A DNA stretch of 64,000 nt, from NCBI GenBank assembly GCA_041650835.1, contig JBAZKL010000002.1, positions 538,435 through 602,434 of the forward strand, written 5' to 3'. Positions 28,769-55,247 of the stretch are shown here, piece by piece. The translations under genes and the position numbers were made by a program. This DNA is from Candidatus Omnitrophota bacterium. GTDB taxonomy: Bacteria > Omnitrophota > Gorgyraeia > Gygaellales > Profunditerraquicolaceae. A model generated the notes under the pieces. It saw only the letters and a list, made by a program, of their open reading frames with translations. It was not told the DNA's origin and searched no databases. The first letter of the stretch is position 1, and each line of letters opens with the position of its first letter.

Positions 28769-28835
28769 TTCTTTAAACTCCTTTATTACCGGAGGACACT
28801 GGCGGTATGAATAATACCGGCAAACTCCGTAACAC

Positions 28836-29048: not shown

Positions 29049-29049
29049 G

Positions 29050-29277
29050 TTATTCTTCCATGATGATCGTGGTCTTATTCGATTGAACGCCTACCATGCC
29101 CCGACGGATAGCGAATACATTCTGGTCCACGATAACGTTTCCTTTAACCAAACGGCTCACCAAAGGCTTGTGATAATCTAAAACTTCAAAAACCCCCTGT
29201 TCTCCGGGAAGCATAACACTATGAGCCTTACCTTCGAAGACTATTTTATCGAGCGTAACAACGATAACATCCTGCAT
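29050..29277 (-). CDS. atpC: F-type ATPase epsilon subunit, N-terminal beta-sandwich only
   Basis: 75 aa (MQDVIVVTLDKIVFEGKAHSVMLPGEQGVFEVLDYHKPLV...). The sequence matches the epsilon N-domain. The C-terminal helical hairpin is absent. Confidence 0.7.
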   Translation of the reverse strand: MQDVIVVTLDKIVFEGKAHSVMLPGEQGVFEVLDYHKPLVSRLVKGNVIVDQNVFAIRRGMVGVQSNKTTIIMEE

Positions 29278-30132: not shown

Positions 30133-30182
30133 AAATAAAAAACGCGGGACCACTCCGGGAAATTACCGGAACGGCCCCGCGC
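30133..30182 (-). terminator. intrinsic terminator of the giant gene
   Basis: On the minus strand a GC hairpin (GCGCGGGGCCGTTCCGGTAATTTCCCGGAGTGGTCCCGCG) is followed by UUUUUUAUUU. It begins about 15 nt after the stop codon at 30197. Confidence 0.65.
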
Positions 30183-30196
30183 TTATTACTTTAGAT

Positions 30197-33100
30197 CTAT
30201 TTCTTCACACCCGCGTCCGGTTTTGATTCCGGCTTTTTACCGGGAAACGCATCATTCTTGGCACTATCGATCACGCTCTGTCCTGAGCGGATCTGCCCCT
30301 GCCATACGAAGAAAAAGATACCTGCCAACAATCCCAGAAAAACGATCACCACCATGATAATAAGCCAGGTCGTGGTCTTGGTAGGCATATTAAGCTTCAA
30401 TTTACTTTTTTCCAAAAGCTCAGGGGTATTCGGCCCCAATTCCGGCGCAAGCAGCTTTTCCAGATCATCCAGCTTCTTCTGGATCAGCTTCATCATCTCC
30501 AGATTCTGGCGATAATAACCGATATGCCGCTCTCTGCTGACCGTCTCATCTATTTGCGTCTTAGAGATCTCATCGAGCACCGGATAAATCGTATCGGTTA
30601 CCTCTTTTACCTGCGCGTAACTATCGCTCTTTTCAAACTTGGCAAGGAGCGAATCGGTATGCTTCTTAATGTCCGCCAGTGCCGCATCTGGAACAAGCCA
30701 GATATCTTCGACTTCGACCTCAAAGACACGGGCTTCTCCAGGCTTTAATTCCACATCCTCCTTGCTATAGACGAAATAAATGGATTTCTCGGCGTCAAAT
30801 TCAAGTTCCAATCCGCCCAGGTCCATCACATCTTTAGGTTTGACCTCCTCCGGCAGGTATTTCTTTACCTGTACCTTCTGCATCCTTGTCTTTGAAGGGT
30901 TAACGATCATGATCCGGAACTTAACGCTGCCTGACTGCATGGACGAGGAAATGATCGGTGAATCAACACCGCCCAGCTTCGATTCAAGGATCTGTAAGAG
31001 CATATCCACGATCGAATTGATGGTATCGGTCTTATTCCTCATATCTTTGATGGTCGAGGTATCTCCCAGCTTTTCATCCAACAACGCTCCGAGGTCAATA
31101 CCCTGATCACCCATTAACAGCTTAAGTTTTTCGGATATATCGTTAACTGCCTTGGCGAGAGTACTTTCCGATCCGCCGCCCTCTTTTATCATCTGCGGAA
31201 GTTCATCCATTGATTCCTTGAGGTTCTGCAAGGTCATGGAAATATTGATATTATCATTGGAACCAAGGACGGCTTGCACAGCCTGAATGGCATCCAAAGC
31301 CTTCTTCGCGGCGCGTTCGGCTTCAGGGGCCGCGGCTGCAAGGCCGGCAACGGTGGTAATACCCATACTTTCTACCATGCCCGAACCTGAAACAAGGCCG
31401 CCGGTCACCTGTTCGCTGACAATATATGTATACGCCTTACCAACATCAAATCGCGAATCGGCCGTAATATTATAGGTATAAAATCCCAACCGGGATTCTA
31501 CCAAAATCGCGTTTTCGACTATCGCTTCATTATCCCAGGTATAAATACTCAACATCGGCACTAAACTCGGCTGGCCCTGGACCTGGATATTAATAATATC
31601 TCCGGTCAAAGCAGGGTTCGGAGAAGCACTTGCCTTCCAGGAGTATCTCTTGGCTGTTGTCTGTAATTCCTGGCCGGCTTCGACTGCCGTGTCGGCGCCT
31701 GACTGCAACTTGGTGATCGCTTCATTGGTCTGCGTCTCAAAGCTGGTCAAAGAAGTTTCAAGCATACCCACCATACCGCCTGCGGCAATAACTTCTTCTT
31801 TCGTCCTCGTCGGGCCGACGATAATGCCGGTCTGTTCATCCATCTTGGTATCAATGGATGCCTTCTGTTCATCCATCTTGGTAGTGATCAAATTCGAAAC
31901 AGAAGTCTGGAATGAAGGCAGCGTCGTATCCTTCATCTCATTGACCGCCGCTTCCGTACTTTCCAAACGCATGGATTCCGTGACACTAAAGGATGTCGGT
32001 GTCCTAAAATGAGCGCCGGACGCGTTACGCAGGTCAACAAGGGCGGCATACACAACACCTGCCTGTAAATTGGTAGGCGCGTTCCAGATCAGGTTAAAGT
32101 ACCCGCCGGCACCCGCACCTTCCTCATTCAACGTCTGGATCAACACCTGATCCTGGTCATAGATATAAATATCGACGCCCTGCACACCGGTAACGATGCT
32201 GCCGTCTCTTTCCAACCAGGAAGTCGCGCGTAAGATATCATTTGTAGCGTCATAGGTGAATTCAGCCTCAGCGCGCCAGATATGCACCGCGGTAGTTTCC
32301 AGGTACATCGTGAAAGCCTGATCGCTGTCGGCGGTATAATTCAAACCCTTGTCGCCATAGCCTGAGGCAGACCAGGTTGTCGTCCAGAAGCCATACGGTG
32401 TCGCATGGGTCACCGCAGACGTCATCCCGACAGCCTGCCAGCCTACAGTCTCGGTCCCGGTAAGCTTTTCCACAACCGAGAGATTGGTCAACTGCTCATT
32501 CGTCAAGAGGTCGCGGATCGTCCAGGTAATGGTATAGTAATCGATCCTAAAAACAGCCGCTGATGAATGATAAATAGTCTCATCATTGACATCCATGACC
32601 CGGACTTTGACTGTTGATGAACGGTCATCAGGCACAACCCAATTGTAAGAATTAAGATTCGGTGTCGAGGCAGTGATCACCGTCTGGGTCGCGAAATCAT
32701 CTTTTGAGTAGACTAATTTCACATTCGGGATACTTCCGCGATTGGTCCAGGTGATCGCATGAGTCTCATTGGTGATCCAGCGTTCCCCACCCACAGGGGC
32801 AGTCAGGTTAAATTCACCCCGGATCTTAAAATCAGCATTCGAGCTGTCGGCAACCGTATCATCGCCGGGATCCTCAACTCTCACCCGCACTGTCTGTGAA
32901 AGCGTATCAGGCACTGTCCAGCTGTATGAATATGGCCCGCCCGCGCCGGCTCCGTTAGATGCCGCGGCATTGATCAAATTAGGATACGTTACCCCTGAAT
33001 CAAGCGAGTAGCTCAACTTGACCGCGGGCATTGTTCCGCCCCAGGTCCAGGTAATATTATGCGCATCCCCCGCTATCCAAGCCTCACCGCCATTAGGCGC

Positions 33101-36100
33101 GGTTAAGGTCAAGAAACCCTGAATACGGAAATTAGCGTTCGAATCATCGGTAACCGTCACATCCGCGGGATTAACGATCCTGATGCGCGCGGTTGCCGTA
33201 CGGTTATCGGGAACGGTCCAGGAATAACTATTCACATTGGCCACAGAATTGGTGATCGTATTCGGGAAGGTAGCTCCGCCGTCAATAGAATAGAGCAACC
33301 GGACATTGGCGATAGTACCGATGGTATTCCAGGTGATATTATTTACCTGATTGATCGGCCATAACTCACCGCCGTTCGGAGAAGTCATGTTAAAAGCGCC
33401 CCTGATCTTAAAATTAGCGTCTGAAGCATCATACGCGTCGGAATCAGTCGCGCTCATGACCCTGACCCGTATAAATGTTGAGATAGCGTCAGGAATGGTC
33501 CAGCTGTACGTATGCGTGTTGGCTGTCGAAAGAATGATCGTATTCGGGAATGTGCTTCCTGCGTCGGTAGAATAATCCAAACGCACATTGGCAACGGTCC
33601 CGATATTGGTCCAGGTAATAGTTTGCGTATCTGCGACGGTCCAGACCTCACCGCCATTGGGTAAAGTCAACGTATATTTTGCCATGACTTTAAAATTGGC
33701 GTCAGAAATATCATACGCCGTCGGGTCAGCCAGATCGGATATTTTTATCCTGCAGGACGGACTGATCTGGTCAGGGAGCGTCCAGGCAAAAGAGCCGTTA
33801 TTATCTACCGCTCCTATAATATCCGGATAGGAACCGCCGCCGTTGGTTGAGAACTCCAATTTAACCGTGGTAATTCCGCTTCCCGCAGATGTCCAGGTGA
33901 TATTATGGATCGACTCGACTTCCCAGAGTTCTCCTCCATTGGGAGCAGTGATCGCGAAATCACCGGTGACCCTGAAATCAGCGTTCGAATCATCATAAGC
34001 GCCGATATCGTTCGGATCGGATACCCGCACCCTCATATTCTCCCAAATTGCGTCAGGGACGGTCCAGGCATAGGTGCCGGTATTAGGCGCAGCCGCCGTG
34101 ATAGTATAGGTTTCCGTCAAGAAATTATTCTTGGAATACTCTAATTTAACGTTAGCGACCGTTCCCACCCTTGTCCAGGTAATATTATGCACCCTGGCGA
34201 CCCTTAACTGCTCACCGCCGTTGGGGCTGGTAAGGGTGAATTGACAACGGATACGGAAATCATTATTTGAAGTATCAAATGCTTCCGCGTCATTGGCATC
34301 AGCGATCTGTATCCTCATTGTCCCATAAACCTGGTCAGGCACAAACCAGCCGTACGTGCCGTTATTAATAACGTTGGTAGCAATGGATGTCCAGGTAGAA
34401 CCGCTATTAGTAGAGTACGATATATTGACAAATGAAACACTCCCGCTATAGCCCCAGGTAATATCATGATTTGAGCCGACATACCATGACTCGCCGCCGT
34501 TCGGTGAGGTAACGGTAAAATTCCCCTGGATCTTAAAGGCCGCGTCTGAAGTATCGGACACCGTCAGGTCATCGGCATTATAGATCCTCACCAAGGCTTG
34601 AGTCGTAATGGCATCAGGGATTGTCCAGAGATACGACCCCGCGTTCGGTGTTGAAGCAATAATAGGAACATAGATCGAACCGCCGTTATCGGAATACTCT
34701 AAGCGGACATTCGCGATTGAGCCGACGCGGTCCCAGGTAATAAGCCTGCCGGAGCCGACGGTCCATTTTTCCCCGCCGTTGGGCGCGGTGATCGTCAAGC
34801 TTCCCCTGATCTTGAAGTTATTATCGGAAATATCATTGGCGACCGCATCGCTTGCGTCAGAGACCCTGATCCTGCAATTCGCTGAAATAGCGTCAGGGAC
34901 GGTCCAGGGATAATTGTTCGTATTCGCGATAGATGCGACTATCTGCGTCCAGTTGCCTCCGCCGTTTATCGAATAATCCAGTTTAACATTAGTTATAGTG
35001 CCGAACGTGCTCCAGGTGATATTATTGACCGAGTTGACTACCCAGGATTCACCGCCGTTAGGGCTTGAGACCAGGAATGACCCCTGGATCTTAAAGACAC
35101 CGTTAGAAACGTCAGTGACGCTCGCATCGCTTGAGTCGGTTATCCTGACCTTGACGCTGTTTGAAATAGCGTCAGGGACGGTCCAGGAGTAAGAAAGCGT
35201 CACCGCGGGAGCTGAATTAGCTATGACCACGGTCTGGCTTTCATCGGCAAAAGCGTTTGTGGAATATTCAAGTTTAGCGTTGGTAATAGAACCGACCCTC
35301 GTCCAGGTGATATTATGCGAAGAAGCTACCCCCCACTGCTCTCCTCCATCAGGGCTGGTGATAACCAGAAGGCCGTGGATCGTAAAGGCCGCGTCCGACT
35401 CATCGGTCGCGTTACTATCAACCAGGTCGGAGATCTTCACTTTACAATTCGTCGATATTGAATCCGGAATGGTCCACGGATAGACGCCTGAATTCGGAGT
35501 ATTACCCGTGATCAAATTCGGATAGGTCACGCCGCCGTCGGTAGAATACCATATCTTAACGTTGGCATAAGATCCATAGGTGATCCAGGTGATATTACGG
35601 CTTTCGTTTACCGCCCAGCTTTCAGCGCCGTTAGGCGAACCGATGACAAAACCGCCGCGGATGATAAAATTACTATTCGACATATCTGAAACCGTCGCGT
35701 CAGCTGCGTCTGATATTTTAACGCGCGCCTGAATATTCGGATTGTCGGGAATGGTCCAGGCATAGGTCTGCAGCGCCGCATTCACCGAACCGACGATGGT
35801 GAACGGGAACGTCAACCCGCCGTCAACCGAATAATCCAATTTCGCGTTCGTGATCGATCCGTAGCGGATCCAGGTGATATTATGGTTTGAGCTGATGAGC
35901 CAGACTTCAGCGCCATCAGGGCTGGTTAAATTCAGGTTGCCGCGGATCTTAAAGACAACATCCGACACATCCGTAACCTGCGCTGCCAGGACATCGGTGA
36001 CTTTTACTTTCCCTGTAGTCGTAATATTATCCGGGATAAGCCAGTTATAGGAACCCGCGACAGCCGCCGTTGAAGCGATGATCATATTCGGATAGGTCGC

Positions 36101-48100: not shown

Positions 48101-51100
48101 GAATCCGGCTACCGGCTCACTTACCGTGACCACCGGACGGATCGCGAAGACCTGAGAAACGCCATACGAATCATCATAGTTATTGACGTCGGAAACCCTG
48201 ATATAACAGGTCTCTGAATTCTCATCGGCAACGCCCGCGGTCCAGGTATACGAGTTTGCCCCTATCGTATGCCCCGCGCTATCGGCTACTATAGTGGAAT
48301 ATCCGCCGCCGGCAGTCGTCTTATATTCGATCTTGACATTGGTAATACTCGCGGTAGCATCCCAGGTAACATCTTTAGTAGTCTGCCCTTTAAACCAAAC
48401 CTGGCCTGTAGCGGGATTAGATACCGAAATACCGCCGAAGATCCGGAACGCCGCATCCGACTCGTCTTTTGCCAATTCAGGATGATGATCCGGGTCGCTG
48501 ACACGGATCAAAACATTATTACTGACATTATTGGTAACTACCCAATCATAACTTTGTTGTACTCCGCTTGCGCCCGCCGGCTGGGTAATATCTAAAAAGG
48601 AAGAAACGAAATTATTGATCGATGCCTGTATACGGGCATTGGTAAAGGTCCCGGTCGGGGTCCATTGGATCTGCCTGGTTGACCCGACGGTCCATTTTTC
48701 GCTGCCGTTAGGCGCGACTACCGCTATCTGGCCGATGATCTCAAAAGTATTAGTGGAAACACCGAACGCATCGGTCAAATTGTCCTTGTCGGCGACTTTT
48801 ACTTTCAGGTGTTTACCGATTATATGGTTAGGAATATCCATAGGATAACTTGCCGGGACTGACGGTACACCGGCGGCATCGGTAAGTTCAAAGGGATAGG
48901 TAACTCCGTCATTAATGGAATAATAGATCCTGACATTCTGTATCGGCCCGGTTTTCGACCAGGTAATAGTATACGGGACTCCTCCATAGGTTAAGATAAT
49001 ATCATTTGCGTCAGGCGTAAGCACCGCGATAGTCCCTTTGATCATAAAATTCGCGGATGTGCCGTAAACCGTAGCGTACGCGGCATCTTCTATCTTAAGC
49101 TTAGCGAGGGTGGCGGAAAGTATATCCTGATCGGTCGGAAGCGTCCATTGATAGGTATTAGCGCCGCTGACGACCGGAACATTAGCAGCTACACTGTATG
49201 AATAGGGCTCCCCACCGGTATTAGAGCAGGAGATATTGACATTATCGATGTCGCCGGTAATGGTAAAGGTAACATCCTGCAGCGTCCCCACGGTCCATTT
49301 ACTGGTTATCGTCGGGGAAGTAACGGTGACTCTCCCGTGGATCCAGAAGACCGAAGATTCCTTTTCTGAAGAAGGCTGCTCGGGAGTTTGCGCGGTGATC
49401 CTGGTTTTACAATTCGGTGAAGACGTAGTTGAAGGAACGGTCCAGGGATAATTCCCGCTATTATCATAAGCGGCATTCAACGTCGACCAGGCAGTCCCGT
49501 CATAAAACTCAATTTTGACTTTTGTTACCGCCGTACCATTGGTTGTCCAGGTAATAGGGTTGGAATCCCCGGAAGTAAGCGGTGCCCCGTTAGGGCTGGT
49601 AAAGCTAAAGCTTCCCACAATGTGGAACACTGCGGCTGATTCATCAAAAGTATAAGCCTCATTATCGGCATCCGTGATCTTTATCTTAACATTATTGGAA
49701 ACCTCATCAGGGATGGACGGCCAGGTCCAGGAAGAAACAGATTCGGCATCCGCGGTCCCGATGGGCGCGACCTCATAGCCGGAGCCATAATCAACGTAAA
49801 ATTTCACTGTTCCGATTGTTCCCAGTTTTGTCCAAATTATATCCCGGTTAGTTTCGCCCACGGTCCAGTCTTCATTACCGTCAGGCTGCGTTAAAGTAAC
49901 CGAACCGATGATGCGGATAACACCCGACAAACCATAAACATTCGTATTCCCCGAATCAACAACTTGCACGACGACATTGCCGCTTAAGGTATCGTTGACA
50001 TTATCCCAGTTGCACCCACCGAGTGTGGCGTCAACGCCGGAAGCAATTGTTTGATTGAAAGGGCCGCCGCTACCGGTAGTGCTGTAAAGGACATTGACCG
50101 TGCTTACTTTTGTGGAACCGTTCAAGCTCCAGGCAACGGCATTGGGATAACTTGACTGCACGGTAAAATTAGCTCCCGCGACAGGCGCGGAAAGAGTGAT
50201 CTTCGGCCGTAAAGAAAACATTTCCGATATCCCCTCTACTTCGGTATTATTCACATCGGATACCCTGATATAGCAGGTATCGGATTTTTCATCAGGGACC
50301 CCTGCAGACCACATATAGGAATTACTGCCTTCAGTGTGGCTGGGATCATTAGAGATAATAGTGGTATACGAACCACCTAAGCTCGTTTTATATTCTATTT
50401 TAACATTGGTGACCGTTCCCACCGCGGTCCAGGCAATACTCCTGTTAGTATCTCCTTTATACCAGACATCACCGCTCCCCGGAGCAGTTACCTGCAGAGA
50501 ACCTTTAATGGTAAAATTATCCGACTCAGTCGACGCAGGGATAGGATCGGAATCGATGGTGCTGACCTTGATCTTGGTGTTCGGGCCGAGCGCGTCAGGG
50601 ACAGTCCAGTTAAATCCAAAGCCATTGGTAAGTTCCGTGGCAAACTGGGTATAGACTCCGCCATTGGTATTCCAATAAAGATTGACCTGAGCAATAGTCC
50701 CTTTGGTTACCCAATCGATGGAATGAGACGTCCCCTTGACCCATTTATCGGTCGCAAGTGGGCTGGTAAAAGTAAATCCGCCTTTGATGGTAAACGCGGT
50801 AGGAGAAACATTTTCCACGGGAATAGGATCGGAAGAAACCAGGATCGCCTTTACTAATAAATTATTCCCGATAGCATCCGGGATAGGATTCCAGGTATAC
50901 GATAAGCTGTTGATCGCCACGTTATTGGTAATAGAATTAATATAATTATCCACGCCGCCATTAACGGAATATTTCAATTGAAGGTCTCCGGCGAATTTCT
51001 GATAGGTCCAGGTTACCGCGCGGGTTGTATCGCCAACAGTCCAAATGTCACCGTTAACCGGATGGGTCACGTCCAAGGTCCCTATGGTAAAACTAACCGG

Positions 51101-54100
51101 AGAAGTCTTATTGATGGAAGTATCATTAATAAGTTCGATATAGATCTTTCCGGTATTGGAAATATTGCCTACCGGGATGCTCGGCCAGGTCCAGGTACCG
51201 TCACTGGCGGGAACGCCCAAGACAGGCAGCTCCGCGATAGTGCTGAAGGTCACTCCATCGGGTGCGTATTTGATCCTCACATTGCCGATAGCTGTCCCTT
51301 GAGCGGACCAGGTAATATCGTGAGATGTTGCGGCGAGCCAGTTCTCCCCTCCCACCGGGCTGGTTAAAGTCAATTTGGGCCTGACGATAAAAGCGGGTGA
51401 ATCGCTGTCGGGGGTGATCGGATTGACATCATCACCGAGATACTGAGCGACTTTGATCTTGGCACTTGAACCGACCATCCCTTCATCAACCGCCGCCCAG
51501 TTATATGCTGACGGCGCACTCGGAACATGCGCGATCAAATGCCAGGGCGCGTTGCCGTCTTTGGACCACCATAACGCGACATTAGCCATGGCGCCATTGA
51601 CCTGCCAGGTAATATCAGCGGGGTCGGTCACCGTCCAAGTCGCGCCTGTCGTAGGGGTCAATAATTCCACTGAAGACAAAATTTTAAAATCAGCGTCTGA
51701 AGCATCTTCAACCTGCAAGTCTGCCGCCTGGTCGCTGATAACTTTCACGCGGATAGTAGTGCTGATCGCGGTAACAGGAATATCCCAATCATAGGTGCCT
51801 GTCGTTGTTCCCGCCGGCTGATTTGCCGCGATAGTATCAAAATAATCGGCGCCGCTGTTCTTGGAATATTTCAAGGTTACCGTAGCAAAGGTGCCTTTTT
51901 TATTCCAGGTAATATTTTCATGGGTCTGAGCAAGCCATTCTTCCGGGCCGTTGGGCGCGGTTATCTCTAAGACGCCTTTTATGTAGAAATTCGCGTCAGA
52001 TTCATCATGGACATTGGCTTCGTCATTATTAAGGTATACTTTTATCCTGCGGTCATTACCTATTGAATCAGGAATACCGACAATACCGGCATCAGGATCT
52101 TCCCAGGTCCATTGACAGGAATTGCCGGAACAAACATCTGCCTGTAATAAGCCGGTTACTACTTGATAGGTATAACTTGAACCGCCGGTCTCAGAAAGCT
52201 TCATGGAAAAGCTATAGCCCGCGTCATGCGCGGGGTCAAAATTACCGGCCTTATCCCACTGTATATTTCTATTGGTATCTCCCACATACCACACTTCCGT
52301 CCCATTATTAGGAGAGGTCACCGCAACAGTACCTTTGATCTCGAAGTTCGCGTTTGAATCGTCATATTGCCGGTCAGCCGTAACAGTCCCTGTAACAATA
52401 AGCCTTACGCGCAGATCATTCTGCATAAGATTAGTCCCACCCAAGGTATCTAGAATATTCCAGGCATAATAATCCTGTGTCGCGGTAACAGCAGTGGTAA
52501 TAGTAAGAGGATACGTACTGCCTCCGTCGGACGACAACAAAATATCCACGGTTTGCCCCTCTAACACATCAGCGTGTTTCCAGGTTATTCTCCCTGTGCC
52601 GGTGGTCGCTCCTGTGTCACCCACATGCCAGACTTCCCCGCCGTTAGGAGTTTTGATTGTCAAAGGCGTCAATTCCGCCACGAACCATTCAATATCAATA
52701 TTTGCGGCTGTAGTGGTATTACGGCGGCTAAAAGCAATTTTATTAGCGGCAGAAGGGATTGCATAGGTCCCGGTTATTGAACCGTCTAAGCCAAATTTTT
52801 GTAACGTAAGGTCATACGCATTAGAAACCCAGAGTGAACCTCCGCCATATTCAATATCAAATGGATTGGTATTTGTGGTATACCGGGCTATAACACCATC
52901 ATCTCCACTTGGTGCTGTGGGAAGAACTTTACAAAGAATGTTAGAGCCGTAATGCACGGTCCAGATATTGGTACCGTCATATGTAACCGCTTGAGGTTGA
53001 AGATCAGGATAATAGGTAGCTCTTGTGGCTATCGCTGAACAACGTATTCTGATAAGCGCGTTATCGCGCAGGTTACACAGCCACATTGTAGGATATCCGA
53101 CCGTAGCGGTAGTATCGGCATAACGGATCCTGGAATAGTTACGATTGACAGCCCCTATATCGGTATGGGTGGAAGCGCCTGTTGTACAAACATAATAACT
53201 CACCCTGTCGCTTGAGGTCCCGACCCAATAAGCAACCCACATCCTGTTCTGGCTGGGGTCATAGGCAATGGTAGAAGGTTTCGCAGTCGCGCTAACAGCG
53301 GCGTAAGTTCCAACCAAGCCACCGGTAGCGGCAGTCCGTTTAGTAACATTAAATGAACCGAAATTGGCGGTCCACACGGAATTAGAAGTAGCGTCAAAAG
53401 CAATATCCATCGGCTGTGTGCCGACGGCATAGGTACCGATTAATGCGCCGGTATCGGCGTTTAATTTGGTAACATTATCCGAATCGAAGTTAGCCACCCA
53501 TACTGCGGTATTCTGTGAATCATAACAAACCGCCACAGGCCTGCTTCCGGTAGTGTATGAACCTGTTAAAGCACCGGTTGCGGCATCGAACTTATACACT
53601 TTATTTTCCAAGGCTTTCGTGACCCACACTGCAGGGGTTGCGGTCGGCGCATAACAAAGCCCCTGGATATAATTAAGATCGATTGATTCCCTGATTTCAT
53701 CTTCATAGCTATTAGTCGTACTATTTGGACCGGAGACGGAAGCAATAGGGAAAGACCGGGAAGAATCAAAAGCCGGATTCAACGCCGCAGTAGTGTAGTC
53801 CGTTCCGCTTGCGACAGAAAGGCCTCCCTTTTGCACCTTTGTGCTTGGGTCAGAAAAATAAATAACATAGTATTTTATATAATTCTTTCGCAGAGTAGTT
53901 GCGCCTTCGGAATATGAATGAGTGAATGTTACCCCTACATTACCGGAGCCGTCGTCACCCAGCGTGCCCCTGACCGCGTAACGGCCTTCGACGCCGGCGA
54001 TATTCTGCTCGGCCCTTGTATTAAATATCAAAAGGCATTTATCGACATTAGCAATAGGGATCGCAGCGCCCGGAAGTGTTTCAGCCACACTTGCTGAAGT

Positions 54101-54775
54101 TTCAGGAAGTGTAAGCTCATTGGTCCTGATATCGGCGTCTGTCTGAAACTCCACTACTTGCCAGACGATATTAAGTATCCTGTTATAATCATAGCTTGAC
54201 GCGCGCTCAAGCTTTAAGGTGTTATCGTCAACAAGCGTTCCGGTTACGAGCGTTGATTCGTCGTCATCAGATTGGGCGTTATACCATCTAGTCTGGACCA
54301 CGGCAAAAGACATGGAAGAATCGATCGTTGTAGGTAAAGTGACATTCTTCGTGGTACAGGAAGGGTTGGAAGTCGGGCCGTATGCCAAAGAGCTCACGCC
54401 CCTCTGCACAAATACGCCGTCGGCGAATTCAACAATGTAGTACCGCACGTTAGCGGAAGCATTACCGTAGTCACGGTTGATAATAAGGCTGGTGTCAGTC
54501 TCAAAAACTCCCGTGAAAAGCGAATTCATGATATCCTCATTGGTATTGGTATCGACATTCGCGTATATCAAGATAATAGACTTAGACTGATTGACTTGTT
54601 TTATAGGCACGCTTACCGTCATATCATCGAGATCAAAATACACGTCTCCTATCTGCACGCGTTTTATCTGTACTGCCGAGGCATCAGGAGGAGAAAAAAA
54701 GATACCGAAGCAGGCGGCTGCCAATAAAAAAACAATGCCGAAGAAAACTTTAGAACGGGTAATTTTGGTAATCAT
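30197..54775 (-). CDS. giant (8192-aa) cell-surface repeat protein: signal peptide, beta-propeller-like region, roughly 75 tandem Ig-like 85–95-aa domains, C-terminal coiled-coil region and TM anchor
   Basis: A single uninterrupted 24,579-nt ORF. A strong Shine-Dalgarno sequence (GAGGTG) lies 8 nt upstream. The protein starts with a signal peptide, MITKITRSKVFFGIVFLLAAACFGIFFSPPDASA. Residues about 380–680 carry YVTN/NHL-like propeller repeats. Residues about 690–7530 carry repeats with the recurrent motif TSPNGGE.W.VG....ITW...G.I.NVK.EYS.DGG.TY....A.T.....Y.WT.PD.I....RVRI.D..D....D.SD.NF.I. The C-terminal TM helix is WLIIMVVIVFLGLLAGIFFFVW, followed by a Lys-rich tail. Confidence 0.9.
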   Translation of the reverse strand: MITKITRSKVFFGIVFLLAAACFGIFFSPPDASAVQIKRVQIGDVYFDLDDMTVSVPIKQVNQSKSIILIYANVDTNTNEDIMNSLFTGVFETDTSLIINRDYGNASANVRYYIVEFADGVFVQRGVSSLAYGPTSNPSCTTKNVTLPTTIDSSMSFAVVQTRWYNAQSDDDESTLVTGTLVDDNTLKLERASSYDYNRILNIVWQVVEFQTDADIRTNELTLPETSASVAETLPGAAIPIANVDKCLLIFNTRAEQNIAGVEGRYAVRGTLGDDGSGNVGVTFTHSYSEGATTLRKNYIKYYVIYFSDPSTKVQKGGLSVASGTDYTTAALNPAFDSSRSFPIASVSGPNSTTNSYEDEIRESIDLNYIQGLCYAPTATPAVWVTKALENKVYKFDAATGALTGSYTTGSRPVAVCYDSQNTAVWVANFDSDNVTKLNADTGALIGTYAVGTQPMDIAFDATSNSVWTANFGSFNVTKRTAATGGLVGTYAAVSATAKPSTIAYDPSQNRMWVAYWVGTSSDRVSYYVCTTGASTHTDIGAVNRNYSRIRYADTTATVGYPTMWLCNLRDNALIRIRCSAIATRATYYPDLQPQAVTYDGTNIWTVHYGSNILCKVLPTAPSGDDGVIARYTTNTNPFDIEYGGGSLWVSNAYDLTLQKFGLDGSITGTYAIPSAANKIAFSRRNTTTAANIDIEWFVAELTPLTIKTPNGGEVWHVGDTGATTGTGRITWKHADVLEGQTVDILLSSDGGSTYPLTITTAVTATQDYYAWNILDTLGGTNLMQNDLRVRLIVTGTVTADRQYDDSNANFEIKGTVAVTSPNNGTEVWYVGDTNRNIQWDKAGNFDPAHDAGYSFSMKLSETGGSSYTYQVVTGLLQADVCSGNSCQWTWEDPDAGIVGIPDSIGNDRRIKVYLNNDEANVHDESDANFYIKGVLEITAPNGPEEWLAQTHENITWNKKGTFATVTLKYSKNSGADYFDTIAANQPAGTTTGTYDWDIPVTAISTTIRVKVISDQAADLQVEDASDADFKILSSVELLTPTTGATWTVTDPADITWQVNGAMANVALWWSKDGNAPWHLIAHVPSAPSAYNWAAVDEGMVGSSAKIKVAQYLGDDVNPITPDSDSPAFIVRPKLTLTSPVGGENWLAATSHDITWSAQGTAIGNVRIKYAPDGVTFSTIAELPVLGVPASDGTWTWPSIPVGNISNTGKIYIELINDTSINKTSPVSFTIGTLDVTHPVNGDIWTVGDTTRAVTWTYQKFAGDLQLKYSVNGGVDNYINSITNNVAINSLSYTWNPIPDAIGNNLLVKAILVSSDPIPVENVSPTAFTIKGGFTFTSPLATDKWVKGTSHSIDWVTKGTIAQVNLYWNTNGGVYTQFATELTNGFGFNWTVPDALGPNTKIKVSTIDSDPIPASTESDNFTIKGSLQVTAPGSGDVWYKGDTNRSIAWTAVGTVTNVKIEYKTSLGGSYTTIISNDPSHTEGSNSYMWSAGVPDEKSDTCYIRVSDVNNTEVEGISEMFSLRPKITLSAPVAGANFTVQSSYPNAVAWSLNGSTKVSTVNVLYSTTGSGGPFNQTIASGVDATLGGCNWDNVNDTLSGNVVVQVVDSGNTNVYGLSGVIRIIGSVTLTQPDGNEDWTVGETNRDIIWTKLGTIGTVKFYVDYGSGYEVAPIGTADAESVSSWTWPSIPDEVSNNVKIKITDADNEAYTFDESAAVFHIVGSFSFTSPNGAPLTSGDSNPITWTTNGTAVTKVKIEFYDGTAWSTLNAAYDNSGNYPWTVPSTTSSPNCKTRITAQTPEQPSSEKESSVFWIHGRVTVTSPTITSKWTVGTLQDVTFTITGDIDNVNISCSNTGGEPYSYSVAANVPVVSGANTYQWTLPTDQDILSATLAKLKIEDAAYATVYGTSANFMIKGTIAVLTPDANDIILTYGGVPYTITWSKTGPIQNVRIYYSINDGVTYPFELTDAAGVPSVPASYPMDIPNHIIGKHLKVKVADKDNLTDAFGVSTNTFEIIGQIAVVAPNGSEKWTVGSTRQIQWTPTGTFTNARIQASINNFVSSFLDITQPAGASGVQQSYDWVVTNNVSNNVLIRVSDPDHHPELAKDESDAAFRIFGGISVSNPATGQVWFKGQTTKDVTWDATASITNVKIEYKTTAGGGYSTIVADSAGHTIGANSYTWTAGVADENSETCYIRVSDVNNYDDSYGVSQVFAIRPVVTVSEPVAGFNIRVGSTYASGVKWSLNGSTKVSLVDVKYSTVGSGGPFNQTIASGVDATLGTCNWNVVSDTMSNNVVVQIIDTLNANTYGLSNAFQIVGRITVQQPNGANDWAVGAIDKNITWTKQGTIGNAYIYVDYGAGYDPTPLATVDTGTVSSWNWNPVPDHVSNAVKIKITDSDNEAVTYDESDAVFHIIGTFTISNPDGAPLISGDPYEITWTTLGAAVNNVKIEFFDGSDWSTIAASAPNSGSYLWTVPITTSSPNCKIRITAATPDQPATQKESVSFWVHGNVTVTEPVSTDTWIVGELKDIVFNVIGKIDNVNITYSKDGGSNYTYTIVSNLAVAQGANTYQWTIPTNQDILSKDLAKIKVADAAYATVYGTSDNFMIKGTLTLLTPTLDNIIMTYGGVPYSITWSKTGPILNVRIYYSINDGVTYPNEITTVAGVPVAPPTYAWDVPNQIIGKHLKVKIVDKDNDDCYMESANSFTIIGSVALNAPNGGEKWTVGSTRQIRWTPAGTFTSVRLEASIDDFTSTFLDITQPAGASGVQQSYDWVIPNNVSNTVKIRVSDPDHHPELVTDTSDAIFKIFGAITTTNPKTGQVWYKGQTTKDITWDATASITNVKIEYKTSAGGAYTVIAADDAGHTIGPNTYTWSAGVADENSETAYIRVSDANNYDDSYGVSEVFAMRPVITVSEPLTGANIRVGSSYPNGVKWSLNGSTKVSSVDVLYSTNGSNGPFDKTITTGRDATLGQCDWNVVTDNISNNVVVKVMDSLNNNTFGLSNVFNIAGTLTIQIPNGGNNWPVNTTDKNITWTKTGTIGNANIYVDYGSGYEVTPIATVDTGAVSSWNWNPIPDHVSNAVKIKIADADNEAVTNDESDATFNIIASFIINTPANGSSLTVDSSYDITWDRYGSAVTEVKIEYSSNGGTDYSVITNNATNSGTYPWAVPDAITTSGKVRISDPANANAMAVSGGFFKIHGSLTVASPNNGTESWDVGSTYPVTWTKHGSIALINIYYSHNNGTDWTKINPVAVDAALGTWDWTISDAILLTTGFSGYIRVEDASDATVYDLSNAKFEVKGAVTLNTPTAAGITLKVGDIYNITWAKFGAVANVELHYSINGGIAGGGSYLPGNLIATVPATDLSYNWSVADAIGTNVRVRIRDAGNSTVWDESGNAFSIIGKVALNAPLGGETWFVGDTRQVQWTPTGTYSQVKLEYSTDAFADELETFSIATVSAGASGVLQSYDWTIPDKIGNDLKVRVTDASNAAVVAVCGSTFTIKGSLALTAPTGGLTWIVGESRSITWNLTGTIPTVKLEYTKDGLVYNDIIASTPGGTGSGSYSWTVADAIGATTKVRVSDTRDANVNSSSADFTIKGSLTLTSPNGGEVWGVDDVQDITWTKMGSIVNVKLEYSTNGFSNESETTVINNSIDATGVPPASYKYSWTIPDAISTTLKVRISNTLDATVQDVSNNFFKIRGGFVLTAPNGGEKWGVGIQNNVTWTRTGSILNAKIEYSINGGLAYPGIVIASTPAGGLTYAWTVPDAISTTCKVKISDVNDATVEDASNANFIIMGAFNVTAPNGGEVWVVNENHDITWVTTGTVANVKLEYSTDGGLTYPNVIVGSTTNNNLYSWPIPDSISNTVRIQVSDASNADASDTSNANFKIKGSLTLSAPNGSEVWSINTHNNITWSRVGAVANVKLDYSTNAFANELETYTIIASTSGATLTYDWLIPDTPSSNVKVRITDVSDATVYDVSNAVFRVVGSLTVTSPNGTEQWVVDATNNITWTKFGAISNVKLMYSTDAGATYPIGNTIIATTPAGAFSYSWTIPDSITNQARVKIFDVGDESVTDQSDANFIIKGSLSLTSPNGGENWIVGENRDITWTKTGSFSNVKLEYSTNAFSDELLVTVITASTPAAAGTYSWTVADAIGTDLKVRVSDAANASVNDVSNAAFTIKGAVLLSIPNGGETWIVGESRNIIWTRTGSVANVKLEYSTDGGATYPTVIIASTSAGALSYGWTVADAIGGDLRVRISDVLDATVNDASNASFTVKGALALTVPNGGESWVVDTSYDITWTRTGSIANVKLEYSTNAFADELQTTVINNSTDATGTPAGSYKYSWAVPDAIGNTVKVRISNTADSLVQDVSNGTFRITGALLLTAPNGGQNWVVGSSQSVTWQRTGNISDVKLEYSTDGGTTYPNIVVNSTPAGGLNYAWTIPDSITTLVRVRISDVSDAGVNDASDANFAIMGGFTISAPNGGEVWVVNDSQNIAWTTNGTVNNVKLEYSTDGGATYPNLVIASTPNNNIYAWTIPDAISIAVKVRVSDALNANSFDISNGNFKIKGALHVDSPNDGTEQWSVGYSYSVEWTRTGAVQNINIYYSANAGVDWIKINGAAVDASLGTWSWALPGDTELSTQARIQITDTSDPTVTDLSNNNFVVKGGLRVETPNAAGVSIQVGNSYNITWTKFGNIPNVQIHYSTNGGIVGGGTYPDPGNLIAVVAAADQLFVWDIPDRIGTNLRIRVRQDDNVNVWDESDNAFEIKGNLQVVTPNGGEVWFVGDSNNIQWIPTGTFTSQVKLEYSTNAFANEGQTVFIATVPAGVSGVTQAYSWSVPNAIGTSLKVRTTDANNETVVDVSNNPFTIKGKLRVMQPNGSETWVVATVQNITWQRTGTIANIDLVYSTDNGSTYPNTISTGVDGAAGTYAWTIPDAIGSNLRVKILDSTDVTVEDVSDNTFTVKGALTITAPNGAEAWQIGTTQNVTWTRQGSITSVKLEYSLDGGSTYPTVIVASTDGASGTYGWLIPDNPCATVKVRITDTSDATVFDISNANFKIIGSLTITTPNGAEMWGIAVDKTIRWNMTGSIANVKLQYSTNSGVSYDYLIVASTPAGGREYTWNVSDTPSTHARVKISDASDVTVADESDADFKIQGRFTISSPNGSEVWVVDNSQDITWTYVGSVTNVRLEYSSDGGANYPATIAASIANSMTYSWTVPDVISSQMRVRISDVNDYDAFDTSDGNFKIKGALTLLSPVGAENWVVASSHNITWLRTGSVALVKLEYSVNGGANYLNTIANSVDASLLTYSWTIPDAIGTQLRVKITDTSDSTVYSASAANFSIKGALAVTSPNGGENWIVSTAHNVTWTRTGTIANVKIDYSKNSGVSFPLPIAASTDASTGSFAWTIPDDLSILVRVRVMDASDSSVFDSSDADFSIGGSLEVNSPNGGQIWYVGEARAITWTRSGSIPAVKLEYSINGGTSYDNLIIASTDAAAQTYAWSVPDAIGGQLRVKVTDTGNASVTDTSDADFTVKGILLLTSPNGSETWFVGENHNITWTPTGSIQNVKLEYSTDGNTYPNVIIASTAGPVGAYTWTIPDAIGTNLKVKVTDVLDASVNDASNATFTVKGILHVIAPNGGESWGVATAQNITWTRTGSIANVRIDYSSDGGATYPNLVQNNVDASAGSYAWSIPDNISSQVRVKITNTLDASVFDDSDVNFKIVGILGLSSPNGGERWTVGVNNNIIWTKVGNISNVKLEYSTNGGGSYNSIVGSTPAGALSFTWNIPDAVSQTVKVRISDVSDSTVNDVSDANFTIQANFTITAPNGGEVWVVNSSHPITWNYVGSVSTVKLDYSTDGGTTYPFAITGSTSNSGSFAWTIPDTLSSLVKVRISDYNDALTFDVSDNNFKIRGNITVTAPNGGEAWIVGNSYNITWGIVGSVANVNIEYSTDGGTTYPNVIAANVLASDGTRAWTIPDTLSQTVMVRITDTADSSVFDTSNANFKIRGSFTLTSPDGGEIWDVGSVQNISWTRNGNIINAKLDYSMDAGSTFPFTIVASVDASLGVYPWVIPDVISTQLRVRVSDASDVSVFDNSNANFKIRGAISVTAPNGGESWAVATVHNITWTIAGTIANVKIDYSNDGGLTYPNVIVASTGAVAGTYAWTIPDSISAQIRVKVTNLSDLTVYDTSDGDFNIIGQLVVIGPNGGEVWSVGSSQSISWSRIGSIADVKLEFSVDGGATYPNMIIASTAAVAGSYNWLIPDNITTTGKVKVTDVLAAQVTDVSDVVFKIRGNLNLTSPDGAEVWLISSNHNITWIRYGSITNAKLDYSVDGGLTFPFTIVGSVNAALQTYAWTIPDNPNIQARVKISDAADATVSDMSNSNFIIRGGFVIGSPNGAESWAVNESRNITWITYGSYANVKIWYSTDGGVTYPNLITGNTPNSGVYPWTIPDSISTNCKVKISDLVDSNATDESDAAFTIHGLLVITSPDGGEQWGVASSHNITWTRVGSITNAKLEYSTNAFADESQTVVIANSAPAVTLSYSWTVPDAISNSVKVRITDSSDASVTDVSNGVFKIQGSFLVSSPNGGESWVVNSVNNITWSTFGTITNVKLDYSINGGGNWTQIVASIANTNNYPWTVPDAISANCRIRVSDASDAVANDISDNNFKIRGSLTITAPNGGEKWTVGSGRLITWDRVGSIANVRLEYSDNGGSIYVPIIASTPNAGSYLWTIPDAITTQALVRIYNADDLTVSDTSDAAFKIQGNFTVTSPNGGESWYVGSNHDITWGYSGSVSFVNISYSTNSGSTWTSIATNVINNGTYGWFVPDQVYGTMRIQIADANDAEAFDTSNNDFRIRCQFTLTSPNGGEQLRVARVHNITWTRVGTVANVKLEYSKNNFLTETYTITAAAPNTGTYAWTVPDAIWENMRVRVSDPNDIGAYDDSNADFRVTGDFAITAPNGGELWEVESIHNITWTSAGSGITTVKLEFSTNGGGSYPDIIGAVDNNGSFAWTLPDQISPSCRIKISDLADPTAYDISDANFKVMAKYTLTLPNGGEVWTVADTQTITWTNIGTVANVRLDYSTDAGSTFPNTIILSTANTHTYSWTIPDAISTFIRVRVMSATDSDAYDASDANFKIRGAFNMTSPNGGELWPINQVNNITWNTIGTIANVRLLYSIDGGATFPNTITNSVANVNSYSWTVPDNRTATARIRIVNPADVTVTDDSNANFRIQGFLTLTAPNGGEAWIAGDAHNITWTWGGTMPAVKLSYSLDSGVTYPNLINAAASNGAGAGGPYSYSWTVPDTLSQTVRVRVEDPGDDTVADSSNADFKIRGEFNLTAPVGGERWITNETHAITWTNRGSIPNVKLVYSKDDFATQTVITASTPNLNSYNWVVPDDRSSTVKVRVMDVNDETIYHSSAAVFRIDYYTITWTIRDLLTNEQLTNLSVVEKLTGTETVGWQAVGMTSAVTHATPYGFWTTTWSASGYGDKGLNYTADSDQAFTMYLETTAVHIWRAEAEFTYDATNDILRATSWLERDGSIVTGVQGVDIYIYDQDQVLIQTLNEEGAGAGGYFNLIWNAPTNLQAGVVYAALVDLRNASGAHFRTPTSFSVTESMRLESTEAAVNEMKDTTLPSFQTSVSNLITTKMDEQKASIDTKMDEQTGIIVGPTRTKEEVIAAGGMVGMLETSLTSFETQTNEAITKLQSGADTAVEAGQELQTTAKRYSWKASASPNPALTGDIINIQVQGQPSLVPMLSIYTWDNEAIVENAILVESRLGFYTYNITADSRFDVGKAYTYIVSEQVTGGLVSGSGMVESMGITTVAGLAAAAPEAERAAKKALDAIQAVQAVLGSNDNINISMTLQNLKESMDELPQMIKEGGGSESTLAKAVNDISEKLKLLMGDQGIDLGALLDEKLGDTSTIKDMRNKTDTINSIVDMLLQILESKLGGVDSPIISSSMQSGSVKFRIMIVNPSKTRMQKVQVKKYLPEEVKPKDVMDLGGLELEFDAEKSIYFVYSKEDVELKPGEARVFEVEVEDIWLVPDAALADIKKHTDSLLAKFEKSDSYAQVKEVTDTIYPVLDEISKTQIDETVSRERHIGYYRQNLEMMKLIQKKLDDLEKLLAPELGPNTPELLEKSKLKLNMPTKTTTWLIIMVVIVFLGLLAGIFFFVWQGQIRSGQSVIDSAKNDAFPGKKPESKPDAGVKK
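32190..52700 (-). repeat. coding tandem-domain array inside the giant gene (about 88-aa / 265-nt units)
   Basis: Protein-level periodicity is visible along residues about 690–7530. The DNA copies are diverged, and antisense pseudo-ORFs differ between units. The exact unit count needs an HMM or dot-plot. Confidence 0.8.
45100..51700 (-). repeat. about 2.1-kb (roughly 690-aa, 7–8-domain) cassette triplicated within the giant gene
   Basis: Three DNA segments near 45.2–47.5, 47.5–49.6 and 49.6–51.6 kb align at about 80–90% identity. For example, ...GGTGACCGCTTCATTATC[AG/CG]..GATCTTGATCTTGAC... recurs. On the protein, the blocks LRPKITLSAPVAGANF..., IRPVVTVSEPVAGFNI... and MRPVITVSEPLTGANI... are colinear over roughly 690 aa. 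Confidence 0.75.
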
Positions 54776-54779: not shown

Positions 54780-55247
54780 TCACCTCTCTTTTACTCCCTT
54801 TAACGGGAGAGAGTCATTAGTAGCTGCGCCGGCAGCAGGCATGATCGCTTCTTCCTGGGACGTCAAGTCCCGAGGAGCAGCTTTTAAGAACATAACGGCC
54901 TGCGCGACAAAAGTCCTTTTTTTCCTGCCATTATCCAGAATTTCGGTTATTTCATCATATTTAACGGTGACCGTATCACCGAATTTTATATCGCTCAATT
55001 TATTTTTATGCTCTACCTTGATCTTTTTATCTATCGTAAAAGCCATTTCATAAGCTCCTTTAGACGGATCATCCGCGCCATAGGTAACTGCCATAAAATT
55101 AGAGGATAAGCCGCTGATAACTCCCGTGACCTCTTTACGGACGGTTTCTTTACTACCCGTCTTCTCTTGGGCCGACGCCGGAACAGCTATACACACACTT
55201 AACAACAAAAATAAGGCGGTTACTATCCTGGTCATTTTTGTAAACAT
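54780..55247 (-). CDS. small secreted protein of unknown function (signal peptide)
   Basis: 155 aa beginning with a signal peptide, MFTKMTRIVTALFLLLSVCIAVPASA. Its TGA stop lies inside the Shine-Dalgarno sequence of the giant gene, 5 nt before that gene's ATG. Confidence 0.6.
   Translation of the reverse strand: MFTKMTRIVTALFLLLSVCIAVPASAQEKTGSKETVRKEVTGVISGLSSNFMAVTYGADDPSKGAYEMAFTIDKKIKVEHKNKLSDIKFGDTVTVKYDEITEILDNGRKKRTFVAQAVMFLKAAPRDLTSQEEAIMPAAGAATNDSLPLKGVKER

Follow-up and report, generated by a model that had tools for sequence, protein, structure and literature searches.

The window analyzed here is a 64-kb stretch of a Candidatus Omnitrophota genome (assembly GCA_041650835.1, contig JBAZKL010000002.1, positions 538,435 to 602,434), and it is dominated by a 24.6-kb open reading frame (ORF) on the reverse strand that begins with ATG, encodes a protein of 8192 amino acids (aa) and, in the ORF listing, has the terminal stop codon as its sole stop. 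The predicted protein (877 kDa, isoelectric point 4.5) is rich in Thr, Ser, Val, Ala, Gly, Asn, and Asp. An earlier, sequence-only reading of the window had treated this giant gene as a stand-alone unit. Instead, it is the third gene of an operon controlled by a putative cyclic di-GMP (c-di-GMP) riboswitch, preceded by genes for a Y1_Tnp-like membrane protein and a 155-aa secreted protein, and it is followed by genes for an F-type ATPase and for a system resembling type II secretion systems (T2SS) and type IV pili (T4P). The coordinates of all of these features are collected in Table 1. Taken together, they suggest that the giant protein is probably an adhesin-like fiber of the cell envelope, anchored in the membrane and regulated by c-di-GMP.

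The sequence-only reading had described a single uninterrupted frame with a strong Shine-Dalgarno sequence upstream and an intrinsic terminator of its own downstream, and all three descriptions were borne out. The coordinates of the frame were right and it contains no internal stop; the Shine-Dalgarno sequence, GAGAGGTG, lies 6 to 7 nucleotides (nt) upstream of the ATG, within the end of the 155-aa gene, the stop codon of which is separated from the giant ATG by 4 nt; and a terminator hairpin with its T-run follows the stop codon, read from 30184 to 30140. The same 8192-aa gene call is present on the ENA contig k141_1717945.

An assembly artefact, in which collapse or expansion of repeats, a chimera, or a pseudogene is read as a single frame, might be suspected from the fact that the contig is a short-read MEGAHIT assembly (k = 141) and that most homologs break at contig ends within their repeats. 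We nevertheless consider it extremely improbable. The longest exact nucleotide repeat within the giant ORF is 26 nt, with none of 31 nt or more, which is far below k, and the repeat units average only 36% identity; the repeats are thus old and diverged, and collapse or expansion, about which the sequence-only reading had been concerned, is not a worry. Independent assemblies are also collinear with the window unit by unit. A 646-kb SPAdes contig from a separate metagenome-assembled genome (MAG), locus L005, is collinear with aa 4065 to 8192 (90.9% identity over 4130 aa, with 2 gaps), and loci L006 (70%) and L013 (65%) are collinear with the giant protein too, with few gaps, whereas out-of-register alignments of the array reach 34 to 49% identity at most. 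Because in-register identity is far above that of the shifted alignments, each unit has its own ortholog, so that the units can be taken as orthologous one by one across species, with unit number kept at least over the C-terminal 35. Compared with L005 and L004 alike, the giant gene shows a ratio of nonsynonymous to synonymous substitution rates (dN/dS) of 0.065, and an open frame of 24.6 kb with such a ratio against an ortholog excludes a chance origin. Moreover, an independent database protein, P0083, likewise joins head and base (see below) in one chain. Judged by these sequence comparisons, the giant ORF is a genuine gene of an Omnitrophota bacterium.

The hydrophobicity profile of the giant protein shows just two hydrophobic segments, at aa ~5 to 32 and aa 8137 to 8158. 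The first belongs to a signal peptide, predicted to be cleaved between ASA and VQ; the motif D-A-x-A-V-Q at this site is kept in six homologs. A lipoprotein signal (LAAAC, aa 18 to 22) was considered and rejected, since its Cys sits midway along the hydrophobic core and varies among homologs, the conserved residues being ASA and VQ instead. The second is a transmembrane (TM) helix followed by a basic tail of 33 aa; helix and tail are conserved in homologs, and the tail carries a conserved AFP motif. A Sec-type signal together with a single C-terminal TM helix and a short basic tail predicts that about 8100 residues lie outside the cytoplasmic membrane. Both the cleavable signal peptide and the lone C-terminal helix with its basic tail had been recognized from the sequence at the outset, as had a nonrepetitive N-terminal region ahead of a propeller, which corresponds to what we call the head domain. 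An AlphaFold2 (AF2) model of aa 1 to 702 (mean predicted local distance difference test score [pLDDT] of 81.7) comprises the signal helix, an all-beta region at aa 36 to 350, and, at aa 364 to 700, a beta-propeller whose strand pattern gives seven blades of four strands each.

The propeller had been proposed to be of the YVTN/NHL-like type, and Foldseek searches with the model agree as to YVTN: the best matches, with E values in the range 1e-13 to 1e-16, include YncE (E = 7.5e-16, TMt 0.76), the archaeal S-layer YVTN+PKD structure 1L0Q (E = 1.7e-15), and Vgb lyase. Scores of hidden Markov models (HMMs) lie below cutoff for this region (Vgb_lyase, 29 versus 50 bits; PQQ_ABC_repeats, 32.9 versus 287; YncE, 18.6 versus 400), although its database homologs carry YVTN-family names. 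The head domain in front of it contains internal sub-repeats that terminate in YYxVEF-like strands. A profile of this domain recovers 1509 representative proteins (E <= 0.001), of which 95 reach E <= 1e-30, and among these proteins it is mostly placed directly behind the signal peptide of a large protein. Profile searches against Pfam and PDB sequences (E <= 10) found no credible relative of the head, Pfam scans of ten distant head-domain proteins were uninformative, and Foldseek searches of the head model, which includes the propeller, against PDB and BFVD returned propeller matches only.

Behind the propeller lies a long array of Ig-like domains. The sequence-only reading had counted roughly 75 domains of 85 to 95 aa; the array itself is confirmed, but a self-trained HMM resolves it into 69 units of 93 to 119 aa, and only with about 4 nonrepeat beta-sandwiches near the C terminus does the number of beta-sandwich domains come to ~73. 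The unit consensus is IkGxLtvTsPNGGExWxVGxxxnITWTxtGsIaNVKLeYStnGGxtYp...YxWtIPDaIS..vkVRIsDaxDatVxDxSdAnF. Identity between units reaches a maximum of 81%, and a seven-unit super-repeat is discernible in the array (u8-14, u15-21, and u22-24, with 61 to 74% identity at the DNA level). The likeness to Kre9/KNH-type repeats that had been suspected is upheld: Kre9_KNH (PF10342) exceeds its gathering score of 24.6 bits on each of five segments that together span the array (30.9, 50.9, 68.8, 68.2, and 54.2 bits), and it is the sole consistent Pfam family over the array, single-domain matches being weak. Units u68 and u69 were modeled by AF2 as all-beta sandwiches with pLDDT ~90, and Foldseek relates them to arrays of Ig, FN3, and macroglobulin (MG) domains.

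Between the array and the TM helix lies a membrane-proximal base. The C-terminal region had been described as rich in coiled coil, and a plain coiled coil is not what the AF2 model of aa 7218 to 8192 (pLDDT 78.7; last two repeats, base, TM helix, and tail) shows. Rather, these ~780 aa form a mosaic of beta-sandwiches and helical hairpins, in the order two beta-sandwiches (aa 7411 to 7597), a helical hairpin, a beta-sandwich (aa 7714 to 7802), helices, a beta-sandwich (aa 7941 to 8022), and helices. The base has no Pfam, NCBIfam, or PDB sequence match, and Foldseek returned only generic Ig, FN3, and macroglobulin arrays for its model. The near-invariant motif at aa 7797 to 7830 is the best-conserved stretch of the family and yet has low pLDDT in the model, a combination typical of sites of partner binding or processing, which it may therefore be.

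The family to which the giant protein belongs is one of Omnitrophota, a link that the sequence-only reading had called speculative. Its C-terminal 797 aa have 45 homologs (31 to 61% identity), nearly all of them "partial" proteins from Omnitrophota MAGs, and a scan of one genome per GTDB species located the C-terminal module at 52 loci in 52 species, all Omnitrophota except for a few (mislabeled) bins named Planctomycetia or Deltaproteobacteria. At 47 of these 52 loci the ORF stays open up to the 5' limit of the locus or contig. Two apparently shorter members with 5' ends of their own were ruled out as complete copies: the end is an N-run in L011 and an in-frame stop within a repeat in L015. 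The latter (JAPLLU010000089.1, ~2350) is a TGA and reflects either an error in sequencing or a pseudogenized copy. No short complete family member was found among the loci examined, and since most relatives are open at their 5' end, the window holds a rare complete copy of the family. The N-terminal 702 aa have five full-length homologs. An independent and nearly complete member, P0083 (6457 aa), runs from a signal peptide through the head domain and 56 repeats into the first part of the base.

The operon that ends in the giant gene is preceded by a sigma-70-like promoter, recognized by consensus match, and by a leader that carries a match to the c-di-GMP-I (GEMM-I) riboswitch aptamer (clan CL00126) ~120 nt upstream of the first gene; the window aptamer carries a 53-nt insertion in P1. 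A match of the same clan is present in the operon leader at nine other loci (L002, L058, L059, L063, L064, L065, L067, L068, and L073), with scores of 31.7 to 66.1 bits, and L062 has a weak match. In seven of the nine it lies ~0.1 to 0.2 kb upstream of the Y1_Tnp-like gene, and in L065 and L067 it lies ~0.1 to 0.4 kb upstream of the 155-aa gene. In an alignment of 10 sequences, compensatory changes that keep the two-helix architecture are seen in 10 of the 17 predicted aptamer pairs, and the core motifs GGCAAAC and CGCAAAG are invariant. The aptamer is followed by a strong terminator (AAAATCTCAGG, a loop, CCUGAGAUUUU, and a U-run), and the hairpin and U-run are kept in the window and nine other loci. 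Thermodynamic folds indicate that the 3' strand of P1, UUCCUGG, is able to pair alternatively with the 5' arm of the terminator, and on this model ligand binding would favor termination. In the literature searched, we found no report of such a riboswitch in Omnitrophota or ahead of a 24.6-kb gene of this kind, and, as far as that literature goes, the conserved riboswitch leader and the fixed gene neighborhood are new.

The first gene of the operon lies upstream of the giant gene at most of the N-terminal loci. Its 397-aa product combines an HUH domain of the Y1_Tnp/RAYT-like type, placed in the cytoplasm, with a TM helix and a beta-rich extracytoplasmic domain. The HUH domain (RAYT/IS200-like) retains HLH and Y-I-H-x-N-P motifs; in some relatives the C-terminal domain alone is detectable. 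The protein looks like a domesticated transposase domain built into a membrane protein. The 155-aa gene adjoins the 5' side of the giant gene in L002 and at 25 of the 26 metagenome loci. Two copies of a AAGTGCCAGGCA motif, 32 nt apart, separate the leader terminator from the first gene, and the motif occurs nowhere else in the window; the same pair is found in L056, L058, L059, L071, and L073, and it may be an operator for the adjacent membrane-anchored Y1_Tnp-like protein, in a ToxR-like arrangement.

Genomic context was examined over the window and over 10-kb flanks of the other loci. At every one of the 52 species loci, the ATPase cluster comes immediately after the giant gene and opens a series that is the same throughout: atpC, atpE, the b/delta fusion, alpha, gamma, beta, an MshEN protein, a GspE/PilB-type ATPase, and GspF, with Peptidase_MA usually next. 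The GspE/PilB-type ATPase of this series has MshEN and PilZ domains, that is, two c-di-GMP receptor domains; in the window, a 161-aa MshEN-domain protein precedes it, and its own MshEN domain is N-terminal and its PilZ domain C-terminal. The gap between the giant stop codon and atpC is 9 to 35 nt in about half of the 52 loci, suggesting co-transcription; in the clade of the window, the gap is 160 to 920 nt and contains a terminator. The 920-nt spacer of the window (29275-30196; 9 to 300 nt in most relatives) matches its closest relatives, L004 and L005, only at both ends. Its middle ~680 nt are window specific and may be a small inserted element; three repeat structures fall within them, namely, an exact 19-nt direct repeat (29394 and 29687), a 19-nt hairpin without mismatches (29973-30017), and an inverted repeat of 16 nt (29788 and 30041).

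The order of the ATPase cluster is unusual, and no gene for an a subunit was found in the 64-kb window or in L003. Its epsilon subunit has 75 aa and consists of the N-domain alone, without the C-terminal hairpin, which in canonical bacterial enzymes inhibits hydrolysis. Alpha and beta score 474 to 487 bits against canonical F1 subunits. For beta, the score is 487 bits against canonical F1 and 330 bits against the Mycoplasma mobile G1-ATPase beta (9io5), and for alpha the best 60 matches are canonical entries only. An ATPase of the Mycoplasma type (the "type 2" F1-like clade) was rejected on these grounds, alpha and beta being nearest to canonical F1. Further along, the T2SS/T4P-like cluster includes a secreted Peptidase_MA, which is a speculative candidate for a protease that processes the invariant AGLAAAAPEAERAAKK motif of the giant protein. 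No secretin or other outer-membrane component was found within the window. Next to the Peptidase_MA gene is a gene for a PAS histidine kinase with a repetitive coiled coil of ~650 aa, rich in Glu, Lys, Leu, and Ala, between its sensor and HATPase domains; in tblastn searches this kinase has only weak partial matches, in L005 (49%) and L046 (31%).

Table 1. Positions of the giant gene, its protein segments, and its neighbors in the 64-kb window
Feature	Position	Strand	Basis and remarks
Sigma-70-like promoter	56711..56739	(-)	TTGACA-17-TATACT; consensus match alone, 11/12, extended -10 TG
c-di-GMP-I (GEMM-I) riboswitch aptamer (putative), operon 5' leader	56562..56688	(-)	RF01051, 36.0 bits
Terminator of riboswitch expression platform	56511..56552	(-)	AAAATCTCAGG, 15-nt loop, CCTGAGATTTT, T-run
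Paired AAGTGCCAGGCA motif	56456..56499 (copies 56456-56467 and 56488-56499)	(-)	Palindromic core GTGCC-A-GGCAC
First operon gene, 397 aa	55249..56442	(-)	PF01797, 45.6 bits; NCBIfam REP_Tyr_transpos, 71.6 bits
Second operon gene, 155-aa secreted protein	54780..55247	(-)	No family match
Giant ORF, third operon gene	30197..54775	(-)	
Signal peptide, aa 1-34	54674..54775	(-)	Hydrophobicity profile; predicted cleavage after A34
Head domain, aa 35-365 (~330 aa)	53681..54673	(-)	All-beta, AF2 model; ~95-aa internal sub-repeats
Seven-bladed YVTN-type beta-propeller, aa 366-700	52676..53680	(-)	AF2, pLDDT ~90; Foldseek
69 tandem Kre9/KNH-like Ig-like units, aa ~701-7410	32546..52675	(-)	Self-trained HMM, identity matrix, PF10342
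Membrane-proximal base, aa 7411-8129 (~720 aa)	30389..32545	(-)	AF2 model; conserved in homologs
Near-invariant motif, aa 7797-7830	31286..31387	(-)	GSGMVESMxITTxAGLAAAAPEAERAAKKALDAI
TM helix, aa 8137-8158, and 33-aa basic cytoplasmic tail	30200..30367	(-)	Hydrophobicity, conservation in homologs
Intrinsic terminator 3' of giant gene	30140..30184	(-)	19-bp G+C-rich hairpin, then T-run
F-type ATPase cluster	24187..29274	(-)	Epsilon, c, b/delta fusion, alpha, gamma, beta; no a subunit
T2SS/T4P-like cluster	11177..24174	(-)	MshEN protein, GspE/PilB ATPase, GspF, PAS histidine kinase, Peptidase_MA, GspG/I/J/K-like pseudopilins, PilM-PilN fusion, GspM-like
MshEN-domain protein and GspE/PilB-type ATPase	21499-24174	(-)	
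PAS histidine kinase, 1028 aa	17059-20145	(-)	Between GspF and Peptidase_MA
Secreted Peptidase_MA	16174-17058	(-)	HEITH motif; after GspF in most of 52 loci

Giant ORFs of Omnitrophota have been proposed to encode adhesins and have been noted near T2SS-like loci (10.1101/2023.11.21.568195; 10.64898/2026.06.07.730766). West-Roberts et al. (10.1101/2023.11.21.568195) described "Archaeovorins" and a "Dockerin type" in 2023, and Nielsen and Lui (10.64898/2026.06.07.730766) described in 2026 a "tandem-repeat scaffold" class with a topology of signal peptide plus TM helix (SP+TM). With such proteins the giant protein shares the phylum, a very long single ORF, an extracytoplasmic bulk with a membrane anchor, one much-repeated domain type, T2SS/T4P-like genes nearby, PilZ (c-di-GMP-related) neighbors, and a proposed role in attachment. 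Archaeovorins are characterized by numerous TM regions, a divergent SecA-DEAD domain, many enzymatic domains, and a length of at least 30,000 aa, whereas our protein has two hydrophobic segments in 8192 aa and lacks SecA-DEAD domains, enzymatic domains, and arrays of TM helices, and a full-length Pfam scan returned Kre9_KNH-type matches and a weak propeller match only. The same scan found none of the dockerin/EF-hand or TSP3 repeats of the Dockerin type, and with those proteins the giant protein has only its topology in common, namely, an extracytoplasmic bulk and a C-terminal TM helix. A single dominant Pfam family, a signal peptide, and a TM helix are also the marks of the SP+TM tandem-repeat scaffolds, but at 8192 aa the protein falls below the size cutoffs of both catalogs (10,000 aa for Nielsen and Lui and 30,000 aa for Archaeovorins). 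The giant protein thus belongs to the known giant, membrane-targeted, repeat-rich proteins of Omnitrophota and is neither an Archaeovorin nor of the Dockerin type. The Kre9/KNH-like repeat, the riboswitch, and the invariant place ahead of an ATPase cluster are not mentioned in the texts of either study. What is new here, within the literature searched, is a conserved family of Kre9/KNH-type Ig repeats with a defined head and base, a riboswitch, and a fixed place before an ATPase/T2SS locus.

In 2023, Seymour et al. (PMC10066038) reported a "symbiotic" F-type ATPase co-located with type IVa pilus (T4aP) genes in Omnitrophota and proposed a role for this locus in motility or attachment. The loci described here share with theirs the placement of F-type ATPase subunits beside PilB/PilC-type genes across the phylum. 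Those authors discuss giant ORFs separately and place none directly upstream of the ATPase (PMC10066038), and alpha and beta here are nearer to canonical F1 than to the Mycoplasma G1-ATPase.

Outside the phylum, the closest parallels are the giant adhesins LapA, SiiE, and MpIBP of Gram-negative bacteria. They are likewise acidic, and tens of Ig-like domains in each form a rod that carries the ligand-binding modules well away from the cell. LapA is also controlled by c-di-GMP, through LapD/LapG, whereas the control proposed here would act on transcription via a riboswitch. These adhesins are exported C terminus first by type I secretion systems (T1SS) and have repeats-in-toxin (RTX) sequences and an N-terminal outer-membrane retention module, in contrast to the giant protein, with its Sec signal, its predicted C-terminal anchor in the inner membrane, and its lack of RTX repeats. 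Its C-terminal 792 aa have no Pfam or NCBIfam match and end in a TM helix, and no T1SS genes were found near the giant gene, the neighbors of which are of the T2SS type. In overall layout (signal peptide, propeller or head, tandem repeats, C-terminal anchor, and basic tail), the protein also resembles archaeal YVTN+PKD surface-layer proteins (1L0Q) and giant anchored proteins of Gram-positive bacteria such as Ebh. It differs from both in its diderm host, its far longer array, and its Kre9/KNH-like repeats, which stand in place of PKD domains in the former and of helical repeats in Ebh, and we detected no sequence homology to archaeal surface-layer or Ebh-type proteins. Sortase, exosortase, and rhombosortase signals (LPXTG, PEP-CTERM, and GlyGly-CTERM) are short motifs before a TM helix with a tail of a few residues; the tail here has 33 aa with an AFP motif of its own, and there was no NCBIfam match to such signals in the C-terminal 792 aa. 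The riboswitch, too, has precedents: c-di-GMP-I riboswitches precede adhesin, pilus, and flagellar genes, as in Vc1/gbpA of Vibrio cholerae and Cd1/flgB of Clostridioides difficile. Like Vc1 and Cd1, the leader described here combines a GEMM-I aptamer and a terminator platform ahead of a cell surface operon, and it differs from them in its Omnitrophota host, in the P1 insertion, and in the 24.6-kb gene that it would control.

The interpretation that we favor, with a probability of roughly 60%, is that the giant protein is a c-di-GMP-regulated, adhesin-like fiber of the envelope with a membrane anchor; its surface exposure and any coupling to the ATPase are inferred. From the membrane outward, the fiber would consist of the ~720-aa base, a rod of 69 domains, and a tip formed by the propeller and the 330-aa beta domain of the head. 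Ig-like domains in SiiE and titin span 3.3 to 4.4 nm each, and if the same spacing is assumed, the rod would be ~230 to 300 nm long, comparable to the size of the cell. The tip would bind a ligand and so mediate attachment to host cells, prey cells, or surfaces. c-di-GMP would gate transcriptional read-through into the operon and might also act on the neighboring PilB-like ATPase via its MshEN and PilZ domains. The T2SS-like system could carry the fiber through the outer membrane, or else move or process it, and the periplasmic Peptidase_MA could process the invariant motif. There are T2SS substrates with a C-terminal TM helix, namely, GlyGly-CTERM proteins such as VesB. So constituted, the giant protein and its neighbors suggest a regulated attachment organelle of ultrasmall, host-dependent bacteria.

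Several points weigh against this interpretation. Its weakest link is the outer membrane, which Omnitrophota, as presumed diderms, would have: no route across it is established for a protein with an inner-membrane anchor. Since alpha and beta look canonical, the giant gene could have stayed beside the ATPase genes as a matter of gene order, with no function in common. The riboswitch match in the window is just 1 bit above the gathering score (36.0 versus 35 bits) and owes its credibility to conserved position and to covariation in relatives. Finally, the head domain has no recognized fold relative, and the ligand at the tip therefore cannot be named.

The outer-membrane problem, in particular, would be eased if the protein never left the envelope. 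It could form a coat or S-layer-like scaffold along or around the cell or in the periplasm, or serve there as a tether or spacer, its repeat number setting a dimension of the envelope. No outer-membrane route is evident in the window, and the succession of signal peptide, YVTN propeller, Ig-like repeats, and C-terminal TM anchor is that of an archaeal surface-layer protein (1L0Q). The ruler-like conservation of repeat number and unit identity (65 to 91% identity) would suit such a role, and the giant protein of V. archaeovorus has been proposed to form a "coat" (PMC10066038). We think that a coat is nonetheless unlikely, because an abundant coat protein made constitutively would not usually be under riboswitch attenuation, one chain of 877 kDa with a specialized tip is not a layout that forms lattices, and the N-terminal recurrence of the head domain in many other large secreted proteins is more like the behavior of a binding module.

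A different possibility is that fiber, ATPase, and T2SS/T4P-like system make up one composite machine, in which ATP hydrolysis by an enzyme without an a subunit, or the assembly of a pseudopilus, moves, extends, or retracts the fiber. By analogy, such a machine might work as an attachment or gliding organelle like that of Mycoplasma mobile, in which Gli349/Gli521 legs are driven by an F1-like motor, a parallel that we regard as tentative and rather improbable. The gene order is invariant in 52 of 52 species, with gaps of 9 to 35 nt that suggest co-transcription; the epsilon subunit lacks the C-terminal hairpin and the cluster lacks an a subunit; homologs of the giant protein share its conserved TM helix and cytoplasmic tail; c-di-GMP would enter at three levels, through the riboswitch, MshEN, and PilZ; and a role in motility or attachment has been proposed for the ATPase/T4aP locus (Seymour et al., PMC10066038). 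Conserved order by itself, however, is no proof of physical coupling. Alpha and beta are close to canonical F1 (474 to 487 bits), and beta reaches just 330 bits in comparison with its counterpart in the M. mobile G1-ATPase. The cluster includes c, b/delta, and gamma subunits, just as an ordinary ATP synthase does, and an a subunit could be encoded elsewhere in the genome. The clade of the window, moreover, has a strong terminator and 160 to 920 nt between the giant gene and atpC. On balance, a composite machine seems to us distinctly unlikely. In its most far-reaching form, it would be one phylum-wide apparatus in which a rotary or pseudopilus motor deploys, tensions, or moves a 0.25-um fiber held by its single conserved TM helix and tail, and Peptidase_MA might release the fiber at the invariant AGLAAAAPEAERAAKK motif; this we hold to be doubtful, but if true, such a single apparatus would be a new kind of attachment or motility organelle of ultrasmall epibionts.

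Giant ORFs are a hallmark of Omnitrophota, and as most of them are unannotated, poorly conserved, and broken in assemblies, their function has been guesswork. A giant ORF as such is unsurprising in this phylum; the conserved regulatory and genomic wiring around this one is, within the literature searched, new, and it is testable. The family is useful in this respect, as it extends over at least 52 species, has a simple architecture of tip, rod, base, and anchor, is tied to c-di-GMP through the putative riboswitch, and has fixed ATPase and T2SS/T4P-like neighbors. The vague idea that giant proteins aid attachment can thus be turned into testable statements. If the protein is a c-di-GMP-regulated, adhesin-like fiber, its leader RNA should bind c-di-GMP and switch transcription, the head should bind a component of the host surface, the length of the fiber should fit 69 units, and expression of the ATPase and secretion genes should accompany that of the fiber or be required for its display. 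A function for the head domain, once assigned, would annotate many other large secreted proteins (~1500 protein clusters).

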